Source of the DNA: Escherichia coli
GTDB lineage: Bacteria; Pseudomonadota; Gammaproteobacteria; Enterobacterales; Enterobacteriaceae
Assembly (NCBI RefSeq): GCF_003334405.1
Contig: NZ_QOWM01000009.1
Length of the DNA stretch: 64,000 nucleotides
Direction: 5' to 3' (one strand)
The notes under the pieces are model-generated. The model saw only the letters and a list, made by a program, of their open reading frames with translations, ran no database searches and was not told the DNA's origin. The translations under genes and the position numbers were made by a program. This document shows positions 2,215 to 14,875 of this stretch, piece by piece (the stretch's first letter is position 1; the number at the start of each line of letters is the position of its first letter).

Positions 2215-4632
<2,418 letters not shown>

Positions 4633-4641
4633 GGAAGCTCG

Positions 4642-6726
4642 ATGGAAAGCAAACGTCTGGATAATGCCGCGCTGGCGGCGGGGATTAGCCCCAATTACAT
4701 CAATGCCCACGGTAAACCGCAGTCGATTAGCGCCGAAACCAAACGGCGTTTGCTTGACGCGATGCATCAACGTACCGCCACGAAAGTGGCGGTAACGCCA
4801 GTCCCGAATGTCATGGTTTATACCAGCGGCAAAAAAATGCCGATGGTGGTGGAGGGCAGCGGCGAATATAGCTGGCTGCTGACCACCGAAGAAGGAACGC
4901 AGTACAAAGGCCATGTAACGGGGGGCAAAGCGTTCAATCTACCGACGAAGCTGCCGGAAGGTTATCACACGCTGACACTCACCCAGGACGACCAGCGCGC
5001 GCATTGCCGGGTGATTGTCGCCCCGAAACGCTGTTACGAACCGCAGGCGTTGCTGAATAAACAAAAGCTGTGGGGTGCCTGCGTTCAGCTTTATACGCTG
5101 CGATCGGAAAAAAACTGGGGTATTGGGGATTTTGGCGATCTCAAAGCGATGCTGGTGGATGTGGCAAAACGTGGCGGGTCGTTCATTGGCCTGAACCCGA
5201 TTCATGCGCTCTATCCGGCAAATCCGGAGAGCGCCAGCCCATACAGCCCGTCTTCTCGCCGTTGGCTGAATGTGATTTATATCGACGTTAACGCCGTTGA
5301 AGATTTCCATCTTAGCGAAGAGGCTCAGGCCTGGTGGCAGTTGCCGACCACGCAACAGACGCTGCAACAGGCGCGCGATGCCGACTGGGTCGATTACTCC
5401 ACGGTTACCGCCCTAAAAATGACAGCATTACGAATGGCGTGGAAAGGTTTCGCGCAACGTGATGATGAGCAGATGGCCGCGTTTCGCCAGTTTGTTGCAG
5501 AGCAGGGCGACAGCCTGTTCTGGCAGGCAGCCTTTGATGCGCTACATGCCCAGCAAGTGAAAGAGGACGAAATGCGCTGGGGCTGGCCTGCATGGCCAGA
5601 GATGTATCAGAACGTGGATTCACCAGAAGTGCGTCAGTTCTGCGAAGAACATCGTGATGACGTCGATTTTTATCTCTGGTTGCAGTGGCTGGCTTACAGC
5701 CAGTTTGCCGCCTGCTGGGAGATAAGCCAGGGCTATGAAATGCCGATTGGCTTGTATCGTGATCTGGCGGTTGGCGTAGCGGAAGGTGGGGCGGAAACCT
5801 GGTGTGACCGTGAACTATATTGCCTGAAAGCATCGGTTGGCGCGCCGCCGGATATCCTCGGCCCGTTGGGGCAGAACTGGGGATTACCGCCAATGGACCC
5901 GCATATCATCACCGCGCGTGCCTATGAACCGTTTATCGAGCTGTTGCGTGCCAATATGCAAAACTGCGGCGCATTACGAATTGACCATGTGATGTCGATG
6001 CTGCGTTTGTGGTGGATACCGTATGGCGAGACGGCAGATCAGGGCGCGTATGTTCACTATCCGGTGGATGATCTGCTCTCGATTCTGGCACTCGAAAGTA
6101 AACGTCATCGCTGTATGGTGATTGGTGAAGATCTCGGTACCGTACCGGTAGAGATTGTCGGTAAGCTGCGCAGCAGCGGTGTGTACTCTTACAAAGTGCT
6201 CTATTTCGAAAACGACCACGAGAAGACGTTCCGTGCACCGAAAGCGTATCCGGAGCAGTCGATGGCGGTTGCGGCGACACATGACCTGCCAACGCTGCGC
6301 GGTTACTGGGAGAGCGGGGATCTAACGCTGGGCAAAACCCTGGGGCTGTATCCGGATGAAGTGGTACTGCGCGGTCTGTATCAGGATCGCGAACTGGCGA
6401 AGCAAGGGCTGCTGGATGCACTGCATAAATATGGTTGTCTGCCGAAACGTGCCGGGCATAAGGCATCGTTGATGTCGATGACGCCGACGCTGAACCGTGG
6501 TTTGCAGCGCTACATTGCCGACAGTAACAGTGCTCTGTTAGGACTACAGCCGGAAGACTGGCTGGATATGGCCGAACCGGTGAATATTCCTGGCACCAGT
6601 TACCAGTATAAAAACTGGCGACGCAAGCTTTCCGCAACGCTTGAGTCGATGTTTGCCGATGATGGCGTGAACAAGTTGCTGAAGGATTTGGACAGACGGC
6701 GCAGAGCTGCAGCGAAGAAGAAGTAG
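4642..6726 (+). CDS. malQ: 4-alpha-glucanotransferase (amylomaltase)
   Basis: 694-aa ORF immediately downstream of malP; product recognised as amylomaltase. Confidence 0.95.
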   Translation: MESKRLDNAALAAGISPNYINAHGKPQSISAETKRRLLDAMHQRTATKVAVTPVPNVMVYTSGKKMPMVVEGSGEYSWLLTTEEGTQYKGHVTGGKAFNLPTKLPEGYHTLTLTQDDQRAHCRVIVAPKRCYEPQALLNKQKLWGACVQLYTLRSEKNWGIGDFGDLKAMLVDVAKRGGSFIGLNPIHALYPANPESASPYSPSSRRWLNVIYIDVNAVEDFHLSEEAQAWWQLPTTQQTLQQARDADWVDYSTVTALKMTALRMAWKGFAQRDDEQMAAFRQFVAEQGDSLFWQAAFDALHAQQVKEDEMRWGWPAWPEMYQNVDSPEVRQFCEEHRDDVDFYLWLQWLAYSQFAACWEISQGYEMPIGLYRDLAVGVAEGGAETWCDRELYCLKASVGAPPDILGPLGQNWGLPPMDPHIITARAYEPFIELLRANMQNCGALRIDHVMSMLRLWWIPYGETADQGAYVHYPVDDLLSILALESKRHRCMVIGEDLGTVPVEIVGKLRSSGVYSYKVLYFENDHEKTFRAPKAYPEQSMAVAATHDLPTLRGYWESGDLTLGKTLGLYPDEVVLRGLYQDRELAKQGLLDALHKYGCLPKRAGHKASLMSMTPTLNRGLQRYIADSNSALLGLQPEDWLDMAEPVNIPGTSYQYKNWRRKLSATLESMFADDGVNKLLKDLDRRRRAAAKKK

Positions 6727-6735
6727 AGTGCAGTT

Positions 6736-6826
6736 GATGCCGGATGCGATGCTTGACGCGTCTTATCCGGCCTACTAATTCATCCCGAATCGTAGGCCGG
6801 ATAAGGCGGTCACGCCGCATCCGGCA
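6736..6826. repeat. BIME: two inverted REP palindromic units between convergent malQ and gntT
   Basis: GATGCCGGATGCGATGCTTGACGCGTCTTATCCGGCCTAC followed by the inverted copy GTAGGCCGGATAAGGCGGTCACGCCGCATCCGGCA. Confidence 0.85.
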
Positions 6827-10666: not shown

Positions 10667-11545
10667 TTACTGACTCGCCGCAGCCAACTCTTCTTCTGAC
10701 AGCCCGGTAAAGCGCATGATGTCTGCAAGAGGAACTCCGGATTCAAGCATTATTTTGGCTATATGCAGGGCTTTGGATTGTTCCCCCTCCTGCCGCAATC
10801 TTTCCGCAATAGTCATTAAACTCTCCTTGTGTTTCGGTGAACGTTCGGCAACGCCGTCGATAAAATCGTTAAAACGTACAGCGTCGCCAGTTTGCAGTAT
10901 GTAATTAAACAGCCCTTTGATTTGTCTGTCATTAGCGTATCCACTACTTAATAAGCAGGCCATTTGCTCTACCAGCCCCATCAGGTCGCGTTGACGAATA
11001 TGTTTTTGAATTAACTCCAGCAGCGCCATACGTCGGTGCTGCATGATTTCATCATCAGGCATGACGGTGACATCAATCAGCGGAAATGCGGAGGCATAAA
11101 GCTGCCTTGCCAGTTTGGGATCGGCGAAACAATCCAGCCAACACAGCGAATAGGGATAGGGGCTTTCAATACCGTGGTAAAACAACAATGGCACCACCAT
11201 CGGCAACGTTTTGTATCCAGCATCAAGGTGATTTTGCATTGCGGCAATAGCGTAACGCATCATGCGAAATGCGATCAGTTTGTTTGAGGTGCTTTGATGT
11301 TCAATCAGACAATAGATGTATCCTGGTCCTTGTTCCGTTTTCACCGACCACAGCACATCGGAATAGCTTTCACGCAGATCGTCATCAATAAAGCTGCTCG
11401 ACTCCAGCTTGAGGGTTTTCATATCACAAAGCGCGTGAATGGGTGCCGGTAAATGAAACGCAAGAAAATCACGAGCCGTGTCCGGTTGGCGTAAAAAGAG
11501 TTTGAACAGCGCATCGTGTGGGGTGGAACTCTGCTTTTTGCTCAT
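10667..11545 (-). CDS. rpnA: Transposase-like recombination-promoting nuclease (Rpn/YhgA family)
   Basis: 292-aa ORF starting [33 protein letters not shown], recognised as the YhgA-like family; no flanking inverted repeats seen. Confidence 0.9.
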
Positions 11546-11688: not shown

Positions 11689-11726
11689 GCAAAAAAGCCC
11701 GGATGCAGACGCATACCGGGCTTTCC
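11689..11726 (-). terminator. Rho-independent terminator of the feoABC operon
   Basis: Reverse strand: GC-rich stem GCCCGGTATGCGTCTGCATCCGGGC followed by TTTTTT, just 3' of the feoC stop. Confidence 0.7.
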
Positions 11727-11747: not shown

Positions 11748-11984
11748 TTAACGCAGCGCCCACCACTCGCGCAGACAGGCTTTTCCTTCCGGGCAGCTTT
11801 TACAACTGCCAGAGAGGCAGCCGTCAGGTTCTTCCTGAATCCGCACGGCTTTGCCCATACTTTCCAGTTGTTGCAGCATGGCGTTAATCATTGGCTGTGG
11901 AGTGTTCAATGTCTGGCTTATCTGGGCCGCTTCCATACGGCCCCGTAACGCCAGCAAATCGCGCACCTGAATAAGTGAAGCCAT
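11748..11984 (-). CDS. feoC: Ferrous iron transport protein FeoC
   Basis: 78-aa product [24 protein letters not shown]... with Cys cluster [15 protein letters not shown]. Start ATG overlaps the feoB stop by 1 nt; the track's ORF is 3 codons longer. Confidence 0.9.
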
Positions 11985-14305
11985 TAATGGCAATCACCGG
12001 TGGTGCTGGCTGCGCAGCAACTGCTTACCGACTTGCGGGTTGCCAGCAGTTCGATATCCACCCGGCTACGCGCGCGGCGCAGCAGACCGATAACCACGAT
12101 GTTAAACAGGATAACCGCCAGAATGCACACCAGGCTGTAAGTTGGATGCTGACTGTAGCTGGCGACCTGATAGAACAATGTTGCCAGTGAGTAAGCGATA
12201 TTCAGCCCCCACAGGATGGAGAAGCCCATCCAGCCACGGCTTGATTCACGGGCGATAGCCCCCATCACCGAGATACATGGTACATACAGCAGGACGAAAA
12301 TCAGGTAGCTGTAAGCTGCTGCTGCGCTACCGAATTTCTGATCCATCACGCCCATCGCCCCGGTACCCATTTCGCCGTCGCCTTTGCTGGCTTCAATGGG
12401 GTTCATCAGTACGCTAAGGCTGAAGGTGTCTTTCAGGCTCTGCCAGGTTTCATCTATCGCACTGAACAGCTCTTCACCGAGGTTAAATTCTGCCGGATTG
12501 AACTCTTCGTCCTGAATATTTTCTGCGGTGTAGAGGGTGTTGAGCGTACCCACTACCACTTCTTTCGCCATGGCACCTGTAAACAGGCCAACCGTTGCCT
12601 GCCAGTTATCTTCATGCACGCCAATTGGCTTGAAGACCGGGGTGATCACCCGGCTGACGGACGCCAGCGCCGAGTCGTTGATGTTATCGACGATTTTCCC
12701 GCTCAGCGAGAAGCTGTTGAAAGCGCTCAGGAAAATGCTGACGATGATGATCACTTTACCAGCACGCAGAACGAAGCCTTTCAGACGCTGCCAGGTCTGG
12801 ATAATCAGGCTTTTAACGTGTGGTACATGATAGACCGGCAACTCCATGACAAACGGCGTCGCTTCACCGCGCATGATGGTGTACTTGAGCATCAGGCCAG
12901 TCAGCACCGCCATCACAATACCCAGCATATACAGCGAGAAGACCGCCAGCGCACCGTTCTGCCCGAAGAAGGCAGCCGCGAATACTGCGAAGATAGCCAG
13001 ACGCGCGCCGCAGGACATAAACGGTGCCATCATGATGGTCATCAGACGTTCACGCGGTGCATCAAGCGTACGTGCACCCATTACCGACGGTACGTTACAA
13101 CCGAAACCGACGATCAGCGGCACAAAGGATTTCCCCGGCAAGCCCAGCGCCTGCATCAGACGGTCCATCACAAACGCCGCACGCGCCATATACCCGGAGT
13201 CCTCAAGGAAGGAGAGGAACAGGTACATCATGCCAATCTGCGGCACCAGTGGCAGCACGGTGTTAATGCCGCCACCCAGGCCCTGGGCGAGGAAGATAGT
13301 CAGCCAGTCCGGGAAGTGGAGCGTGTAGCCAATCCATTGAATACCATGCACAAATAGCGCCACGGAGCCGACGTCAAACAGCGGCTGTAACGCCCCGCCG
13401 ATGTTGATAGCCAGCAGGAACATCAGGTACATCACAAAGAGGAAAATCGGCAGACCGAGGAAACGGTTGAGCACGATTTTATCTACCGCAGTGGTGAAAC
13501 GGCTGGGTTCTGCCGTCAGGGTGTTGCTTACCACATCACAGATGGCAGCAATGCACTGGTAACGCGCATCGGCAATGTGCAGCGCCGGATCGTCCATCTC
13601 ATTACGCAGACGGGCGAGGGCGGCATCCAGATGCTGCGACGCTTCACCGGCGTAGGCGCGGCTGTAGATATCGCCTTCCAGCATTTGCAGGCCCAGCCAG
13701 CGACGTTGTTTCAGCGGGATGTCGGAAGGCATCACTTTTGCCAGTGAATCTGCTTCGTTGAGCAGCGGCTGTGCGTAATGCACCAGTTCCACATTCTCGT
13801 TAGCTTTATAGCGATCAATCGCCAGCTTGAGCGCTTCAATACCGCGACCACGGGTTGAAACCAGCGGGATCACCGGACAGCCCAGACGCGCCGACAGAGC
13901 ATCAATTTCAATACGAATATTTTGCTTCTCGGCAATGTCGAGCATGTTCAGTGCCACAATGCAGGGAATGCCGAGTTCCAGCAGTTGTAGCGTCAGGTAC
14001 AGGTTACGCTCAAGGTTAGACGCATCCACCACGTTAATCAGCAGGTCGGCGTCGCCACTCAAAATGTAGTGACAGGCGATTTGCTCATCGAGCGAGGTCT
14101 GCGATGAGATGGTGGTCAGAGAATAGGTGCCGGGCAGGTCCACCAGCGTGACCTGATGATCGGTGGTGGAGAATTGCCCTTCTTTACGTTCGACGGTAAC
14201 GCCAGCCCAGTTACCTACACGCTGACGTGAGCCAGTGAGCTGGTTAAATAACGTTGTCTTGCCAGAATTTGGATTACCAATTAAGCCAATGGTTAATTTT
14301 TTCAT
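11984..14305 (-). CDS. feoB: Ferrous iron transporter FeoB (GTPase plus permease)
   Basis: N-terminal G-domain motif [12 protein letters not shown] followed by a long polytopic membrane region; start placed at [10 protein letters not shown] (773 aa), 4 codons inside the track ORF. Confidence 0.95.
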
Positions 14306-14321
14306 TGTTGTTATCACCGTA

Positions 14322-14549
14322 TTAACAGGAAACCGCTTCCACTTCTAATAAGGCCAGATCTTTTTTGCGTAATACCAGGCTCACACGACGGGTTTCGATA
14401 TGAATGGGGTCGCCGAGTGGAGCGACGCGCACCACATTAAAAGAGGAGCCAGGTAACATGCCAAGAGAAAGCAGTTTTTGGCGATATGCCGGGCTGATTT
14501 CACGGGAAAAGCCAGTGATTTTCCACGCAGTATCTGGAGTGTATTGCAT
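14322..14549 (-). CDS. feoA: Ferrous iron transport protein FeoA
   Basis: 75-aa ORF immediately upstream of feoB on the same strand; product recognised as FeoA. Confidence 0.93.
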
Positions 14550-14681: not shown

Positions 14682-14875
14682 ATCAGCAATACTTAAAATG
14701 TGTGCGAATGTTGGTTTGAATAATAATCTGACTCAATGTTGATGTGGCTCAAGGTTATATCGCAGCGAAAATATAATTCGAATAGTGAATTACCCGGACT
14801 GGCTAATGTTTAATTAAGGTTTCAGTTGTTAATGAAATGATAAATATTGCCGGAATATATTATGAGTTTGGCTGT

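Follow-up and report, generated by a model that had tools for sequence, protein, structure and literature searches.

In E. coli K-12, feoC begins on the last base of the feoB stop codon, and this overlap arose by an 11-base deletion that removed a ribosome-binding site kept in relatives. The deletion is the only fresh point to come out of our analysis. The start overlap is annotated in RefSeq and the cysteine cluster of FeoC is published, so both features, as they were noted from the sequence, are already known. We analyzed a window of 64,000 nucleotides of E. coli DNA, in which the gene at 11748–11984 on the minus strand is feoC of E. coli K-12. This gene closes the feoABC operon, which serves ferrous-iron uptake. 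Its identity, its start codon and its cysteine motif, taken as one joint claim, are almost certain. The explanation as a whole, in which K-12 feoC encodes a cluster-binding protein and its translation is coupled, is quite likely.

A deletion at the feoB/feoC junction

Around feoC, the window matches E. coli K-12 MG1655 at 100% identity, and all but one of the 5426 complete E. coli genomes (5425) have the feoC locus. We rejected a plasmid-borne feoC in E. coli: the matches labeled as plasmids are mislabeled chromosomes of 4.8–4.9 Mb. RefSeq places feoC of MG1655 at 4249–4485 and feoB at 4485–6806 (locus L001), which correspond to the feoC and feoB positions in Table 1. Upstream, feoA is separated from feoB by 16 nt, and the program-made feoB open reading frame (ORF) reaches further upstream than the annotated gene, to a GTG at 14317. 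On the minus strand, the junction reads ACC GGT GAT TGC CAT TAA, the end of FeoB (TGDCH*), and ATG GCT TCA CTT, the start of FeoC (MASL), begins on the last A of the TAA. The TAATG overlap proposed by the sequence-only reading of this DNA is thus borne out, both by the minus-strand reading and by the RefSeq annotation of MG1655. The gene order itself is constant: feoC comes directly after feoB, in the same orientation, at every one of the 80 species loci and at five distant loci. A 1-nt overlap of stop and start codons is a common gene arrangement in E. coli (PMC6728339, PMC12548453).

Table 1. Features of the feoABC locus in the window (positions are those of the 64,000-nucleotide stretch)
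Feature	Position	Strand	Details and basis
Intrinsic terminator of feoABC	11691..11721	-	stem GCCCGG(U)AUGC / GCAUCCGGGC, then U6
feoC (yhgG)	11748..11984	-	78 aa + stop; ATG 11984-11982, stop codon 11750-11748; translation, RefSeq WP_000157586.1
Cluster-binding wing, codons 56-70	11775..11819	-	C56-X4-C61-X2-C64-X5-C70
Overlap-allele junction block, 37 nt	11964..12000	-	11-nt deletion (point between 11986 and 11985 as aligned) and four linked synonymous transitions (11996, 11987, 11976, 11973); alignments
Predicted hairpin	11974..11998	-	GGUGA-UU-GCCA-UUAA-UGGC-U-UCACU; encloses stop/start; weak, without statistical support
TAATG, feoB stop and feoC start	11982..11986	-	feoB TAA 11986-11984, feoC ATG 11984-11982; 1-nt overlap, base 11984 common to both
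feoB	11984..14305	-	773 aa, C terminus ...TGDCH*; RefSeq annotation and C-terminal translation
TTG	11991..11993	-	program-made ORF start, in frame, MPLMASL
GGUGAU in feoB Gly-Asp codons	11993..11998	-	sole Shine-Dalgarno-like element, 8 nt before AUG
feoA, first gene of the operon	14322..14549	-	RefSeq annotation mapped from L001 6823-7050
FNR-like site (candidate)	14739..14752	+	TTGATGTGGCTCAA, 1 mismatch; consensus match

We compared this junction across 80 species genomes, retrieved by a locus search with the FeoC alignment that reached only the Enterobacteriaceae. [quoted passage not shown] The one species with a -1 overlap is Escherichia sp. MOD1-EC7003. Unlike K-12, the Klebsiella and Raoultella species that we read have a 9-nt spacer with TAAGGAG and no feoB/feoC overlap, and in Salmonella enterica the feoC ATG follows 12 nt of spacer, TAAGGGATG-AAAAA (L022, L032). 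Closer to K-12, E. albertii and E. whittamii carry TAAGGAYACAGCA-ATG, from which the K-12 form lacks exactly 11 nt. Among distant homologues, independent feoB/feoC overlaps occur as TAATG (L092), TGATG (L091) and ATGA (L089).

Both forms are present within E. coli. An 80-mer across the K-12 junction, matched at no less than 95% identity, found the overlap in 4595 of the 5426 complete genomes (~85%), and a 90-mer across the LF82 junction found the spacer in 830, including UTI89, LF82, NRG 857C and BEN2908; the two sets add up to 5425, all of the E. coli genomes that have the locus. We take the four named strains to belong to phylogroup B2. The spacer-type E. coli junction is a 10-nt spacer, TAAGGAYACRRCA-ATG. 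Spacer-type E. coli, E. albertii and E. whittamii have the same genes as K-12, with a FeoC that is the same or nearly so, and the difference lies in the junction. From the spacer to the overlap allele, the codons change from GGC to GGT (Gly), CAC to CAT (His), TCG to TCA (Ser3) and CTC to CTT (Leu4). These four GC-to-AT transitions all fall within 12 nt of the AUG and are completely linked to the deletion. The resulting 37-nt block is at least 99% identical over its aligned part in 4593 of the 4595 overlap genomes, and its flanks recombine: ESM1.4 holds the overlap block inside LF82-like flanks. Of the FeoC proteins, WP_000157585.1 is found alongside either junction type, and WP_000157586.1 is encoded next to the spacer as well. 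The junction comparisons show that the TAATG overlap is the derived state, produced by an 11-nt deletion of the SD-bearing spacer.

Probable translational coupling of feoC to feoB

The canonical anti-SD ACCUCCUUA pairs with the K-12 junction at -3.0 kcal/mol, more weakly than with any other of the 84 junctions. The mean for the others is -7.4 kcal/mol (range -12.0 to -3.6), and the spacer-type junctions of E. coli, E. albertii and E. whittamii, with a UAAGGA SD, reach -5.7 to -5.8 kcal/mol. The GGUGAU that stands upstream of the K-12 AUG (Table 1) pairs in a distal register with GAUCACC of the extended 16S tail, at -9.9 kcal/mol for a 13-nt tail. Its GGU codon is found only in the overlap allele; the spacer alleles have GGC at this position. 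The two genes form a co-directional pair with a -1 overlap, and the only strong terminator comes after feoC. The coupling of FeoC to FeoB translation that the sequence-only reading put forward is plausible, by analogy with other overlapping gene pairs of E. coli, and the absence of a canonical SD makes it more so.

Because the 11-nt deletion took the SD-bearing spacer, FeoC is most likely made by termination-reinitiation. Ribosomes just off the feoB UAA would start feoC at the AUG that shares its A, the GGUGAU upstream would perhaps assist this reinitiation, and FeoC output would thereby be tied to FeoB output. On our analysis of the junction, FeoC in K-12-type strains is probably synthesized mainly by ribosomes that end feoB, a view that we hold with moderate confidence. 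In reporter assays, termination-reinitiation coupled the majority of the overlapping E. coli pairs examined (Huber et al. 2019, PMC6728339), and removal of the SD cut reinitiation by 60–100% in four of five pairs (PMC6728339). Coupling efficiency is highest at minimal spacing (PMC12548453). The pairs of Huber et al. resemble feoBC in their -1/-4 architecture and differ in that most have an SD inside the upstream gene, whereas K-12 feoBC is without a canonical SD. In the literature searched, we found no experiment on feoB-feoC coupling, on the feoC SD or on the mapping of the feoC start.

A different account holds that the overlap is incidental and that free 30S subunits start feoC de novo, through GGUGAU and its A/U-rich context and independently of feoB translation. 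Pairing of GGUGAU with the 16S GAUCACC is strong enough that it could permit some independent initiation. The GGU that distinguishes the overlap allele is at least 99% conserved over the 4595 overlap genomes, a pattern that compensation for the lost SD would predict, and there is precedent in the bioBF overlap, which initiates de novo despite a very weak SD (PMC6728339). However, at 8 nt from the AUG, GGUGAU occupies the far 3' register of the anti-SD, and the duplex with the canonical core is merely that -3.0 kcal/mol, which argues against de novo initiation. Under the scheme reportedly set out by Chen et al. in 1994, we reckon the aligned spacing of GGUGAU at ~11 nt against an optimum near 5, and this too speaks against de novo initiation. 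A ribosome terminating at the feoB UAA physically covers the GGUGAU site (PMC12548453), and the prevalence of coupling among the overlapping pairs tested so far weighs against an incidental overlap (PMC6728339). Independent initiation is thus unlikely as the main route, and termination-reinitiation is the reading that we prefer.

The FeoC protein and its function

FeoC matches the NCBIfam equivalog NF011960 at 176.3 bits (cutoff 111) over residues 1–78 of 78 and Pfam PF09012 (FeoC) at E = 5e-13, and the TrmB and HTH_24 profiles also match. It is 100% identical to PDB 1XN7, a "hypothetical protein YhgG" solved by NMR, and the winged-helix fold is assigned through this identity. The gene is the same as that of E. 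coli K-12 FeoC/YhgG (WP_000157586.1, 1XN7), with sequence, position, start and motif all identical; its UniProt entry is FEOC_ECOLI. FeoC of K. pneumoniae, known from structures 2K02, 4AWX (the NFeoB-FeoC complex) and 7WQU, is ~71% identical and shares the winged helix, the Cys-rich wing, the [4Fe-4S] cluster and NFeoB binding, but its cysteines are spaced CX4CX2CX6C. Salmonella enterica FeoC is 86–90% identical and has the same 4-2-5 motif as E. coli.

The translation gives the four-cysteine arrangement of Table 1, in agreement with the CX4CX2CX5C cluster that had been read from the sequence, and it fits the subclass motif CxxGxCKxCPx4-7C (definition from PMC8749426). Of the 80 Enterobacteriaceae species, 78 have the 4-2-5 spacing and two have 4-2-6. 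Among 37 homologues with identities as low as 33%, C64 never varies, conservation of C61 and C70 is at least 90%, and C56 is less constant. This retention of the spacing across species and homologues puts the motif far beyond chance. The same motif has been published for E. coli FeoC as 56-CX4CX2CX5C-70, and a C61S/C64S mutant has the phenotype of a feoC deletion (PMC8749426), so the Cys-to-Ser mutants suggested as a check with the sequence-only reading have in part already been made. FeoC of both E. coli and K. pneumoniae binds a [4Fe-4S] cluster via the Cys-rich wing, with rapid breakdown in O2 (bioRxiv 10.1101/2022.02.26.482101). Hence the further proposal of an oxygen-sensitive Fe-S site on a winged helix stands, confirmed by published work on the identical protein.

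As published work describes it, the 78-residue winged-helix FeoC binds an oxygen-labile [4Fe-4S] cluster through C56, C61, C64 and C70 on its flexible wing, and its partner on the transporter is the N-terminal domain that FeoB has in the cytoplasm. In Salmonella, FeoB is shielded by FeoC from FtsH, and Lon degrades FeoC once O2 is present (review PMC10710835). Under this Salmonella model, transporter abundance would be tied to oxygen through the shielding by FeoC and its removal. The FtsH/Lon model was established in Salmonella, not in E. coli. Deletion of feoC in E. coli impairs Feo function in part only, and the role of FeoC is still called elusive (PMC8749426).

RefSeq and NCBIfam name FeoC as a transcriptional repressor, and it could be mainly an [Fe-S]-dependent repressor that binds DNA via the winged helix, not a stabilizer that binds FeoB. 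We regard this as quite unlikely. The fold itself and the TrmB and HTH_24 matches would suit a repressor. FNR, to which FeoC has been likened, differs from it in being a DNA-binding dimer of the CRP family that has its Cys cluster at the N terminus, and we know of no DNA target for FeoC. The likeness, an analogy drawn by the authors themselves, is that the Fe-S site of FeoC resembles those of sensor regulators such as FNR, which also combines an oxygen-labile [4Fe-4S] with a winged helix-turn-helix (bioRxiv 10.1101/2022.02.26.482101). The same authors state that the transcription-factor idea lacks experimental verification, and feoB expression was unchanged by feoC deletion in V. cholerae or Y. 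pestis (PMC8749426, PMC5519574). The crystal structure 4AWX has FeoC bound to NFeoB. V. cholerae FeoC belongs to the family too, as a small winged-helix protein that partners FeoB and is needed for Feo; unlike E. coli FeoC, it lacks both cysteines and a cluster, its wing is short, and it is functional all the same (bioRxiv 10.1101/2022.02.26.482101, PMC8749426). These observations favor a FeoC that acts by binding and stabilizing FeoB.

Predicted structure and start codon at the junction

The predicted hairpin that encloses the stop and start codons has a folding energy of -10.3 kcal/mol (z = -1.65), and the 120-nt context gives z = -0.86. Were it to hide GGUGA and the AUG until a ribosome at the feoB end opened it, coupling would proceed by RNA unfolding. 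Both allele types are predicted to form the hairpin, Gly-3 and Ser-3 changed in concert between the alleles (C-G to U-A), and pairing in register 0 is far better than in shifted registers over 51 distinct junctions, all of which would fit such a role. We nonetheless consider it improbable, since the stability of the hairpin against shuffles gives z values of -1.65, -1.4, -0.4 and -0.3, four of its five outer pairs are fixed by the conserved Gly-Asp and Ser-Leu codons, and at least 24 of 84 junctions have a C-A mismatch at the sole free pair. At a -1 overlap, moreover, a terminating ribosome on the site blocks the binding of a new ribosome (PMC12548453), which argues against unfolding.

Two structural candidates were rejected. 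The hairpin as a selected structure does not exceed shuffles in stability, and constraints on the codons account for its pairing. The four linked transitions as a structure-lowering compensation bring the predicted opening energy only 1.7 kcal/mol below that of a deletion-only allele, and reversion of Gly-3 alone lowers the predicted structure, against such compensation. A scan of the whole window at Rfam gathering thresholds matched no RNA family, so the feoB/feoC junction holds no known cis-regulatory RNA.

The start of FeoC is well conserved. From the aligned ATG, 80 of 80 species loci encode MAS[LMI] or MATL; of 37 diverse homologues, 35 have the aligned Met as their first residue; and RefSeq uses the same ATG in both junction alleles. 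This evidence supports ATG 11984 as the true feoC start and TTG 11993 as the start of a program-made ORF. Only in the deletion allele does the TTG share a frame with feoC. The sequence-only reading had suspected that the upstream start (MPLMASL) was false, and RefSeq, the conserved N terminus and the out-of-frame TTG of the spacer alleles agree with it; the range 11748–11993 that it gave corresponds to the program-made ORF from TTG 11993, and was not upheld, the true coding sequence being 11748–11984. Translation from TTG 11993 into an 81-aa FeoC is scarcely credible: TTG is a permitted bacterial start codon and no stop intervenes before the ATG, but the SD-like GGUGA adjoins it with a 0-nt gap, it forms part of GA-TTG-C in the Asp-Cys codons of FeoB, in the E. 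coli, E. albertii and E. whittamii alleles that keep the spacer it is at -20 and out of frame, an in-frame upstream start is absent in 41 of 80 species, the MPL extension is conserved in no homologue examined, and both RefSeq and the PDB construct use the ATG.

Operon signals

The intrinsic terminator of feoABC starts 27 nt past the feoC stop codon, with a predicted stability of -25.2 kcal/mol (z = -3.65) that none of 200 shuffles equaled. At the other end of the operon, the candidate FNR-like site lies ~190 nt upstream of the feoA ATG. FNR control of E. coli feo is attributed to Kammler et al. 1993, as cited in PMC5519574. No match to the Fur-box consensus within three mismatches was found in the window.

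Discussion

We regard the junction polymorphism as the one result here worth keeping, a side result of modest practical value. Studies of E. coli FeoC are done with K-12-type constructs, which carry the derived junction without a ribosome-binding site. Salmonella, Klebsiella and uropathogenic E. coli retain the site that the K-12 junction is missing. The overlap and spacer junctions, which differ between K-12 and UTI89 by insertion or removal of AGGACACAGCA, offer a ready-made pair of natural alleles for studying coupling and FeoB stabilization.

Whether the polymorphism has a measurable physiological effect is doubtful, and we raise it as a tentative prospect. In the same speculative vein, the feoB/feoC junction might be a natural two-allele switch, in which the deletion makes FeoC synthesis strictly dependent on FeoB translation and probably lowers it relative to FeoB. 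If FeoC dosage is altered, this could help explain differences in feoC phenotype between species. If such a switch exists, major E. coli lineages would differ in their FeoC:FeoB ratio and, as a consequence, in the oxygen-dependent stability of their ferrous-iron transporter.

Synonymous transitions accompany the feoB/feoC deletion

The 11-nt deletion that produced the K-12-type feoB/feoC junction is in complete linkage with four synonymous GC-to-AT transitions (window 11964-12000, compared with loci L082 (LF82), L083, L086, L087, L002 and L003 of other genomes). Two of these, the Gly-3 and Ser-3 transitions, fall on mutual pairing partners in the hairpin predicted around the feoB stop and feoC start, and one of the four creates GGUGAU. 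Compensation or hitch-hiking may explain the linkage, as may an older haplotype that was imported.

Downstream of feoC, the K-12 arrangement includes an intact rpnA (window 10667-11545), and LF82 carries only a truncated Rpn-family pseudogene (L082 1120-1290). The 801-nt region here is 90-95% identical in 955 genomes, a divergence that seems high for E. coli.

FNR-like and Fur sites

Within the window, the perfect FNR consensus is the sole zero-mismatch match (Table), and we take it to be, probably, the nirB promoter site. A search of the whole window for the Fur-box consensus, allowing up to three mismatches, returned none.

Table. Regulatory-site matches and the FeoB tail in the window
Feature	Position	Strand	Description
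Perfect FNR consensus, TTGATGTAAATCAA	60755-60768		Consensus match, zero mismatches
Candidate FNR-like site	14739-14752		One mismatch; ~190 nt upstream of feoA
Cys-rich C-terminal tail of FeoB	11987-12025	minus	Also in loci L002-L087

feo genes in other records

Enterobacteriaceae-type feoB-feoC, with 71% FeoC identity and a TAAGGA spacer, was found at L074 (CACSKA010000004.1), labeled Chryseobacterium sp. 18061; this assembly is probably contaminated or wrongly labeled. The PLSDB records examined were NZ_OL790696.1, NZ_CP134663.1, NZ_CP141089.1 and OW848834.1; three of these are E. coli entries of 4.8-4.9 Mb, evidently chromosomes misfiled as plasmids. A genuine 123-kb K. pneumoniae plasmid in PLSDB bears a feoB with ~79% identity to its E. 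coli counterpart. In two giant proteins, P0166 (2574 aa) and P0187 (2510 aa), 4-8 distinct segments look like the FeoC winged helix, with ~30% identity.

The FeoB tail and recurrent tight junctions

Cys-His forms the final two residues of FeoB at every junction read (84/84; TGY CAY stop). The conserved Cys/His tail of the transporter thus directly adjoins the gene for Cys-rich FeoC. Stop-start overlaps are also present at feoB/feoC in L089 (ATGA), L091 (TGATG) and L092 (TAATG), loci whose FeoC homologues are distant (38-49% identity). Because these overlaps arose independently in distant homologues, tight junctions are a recurrent feature of the feoB/feoC pair.
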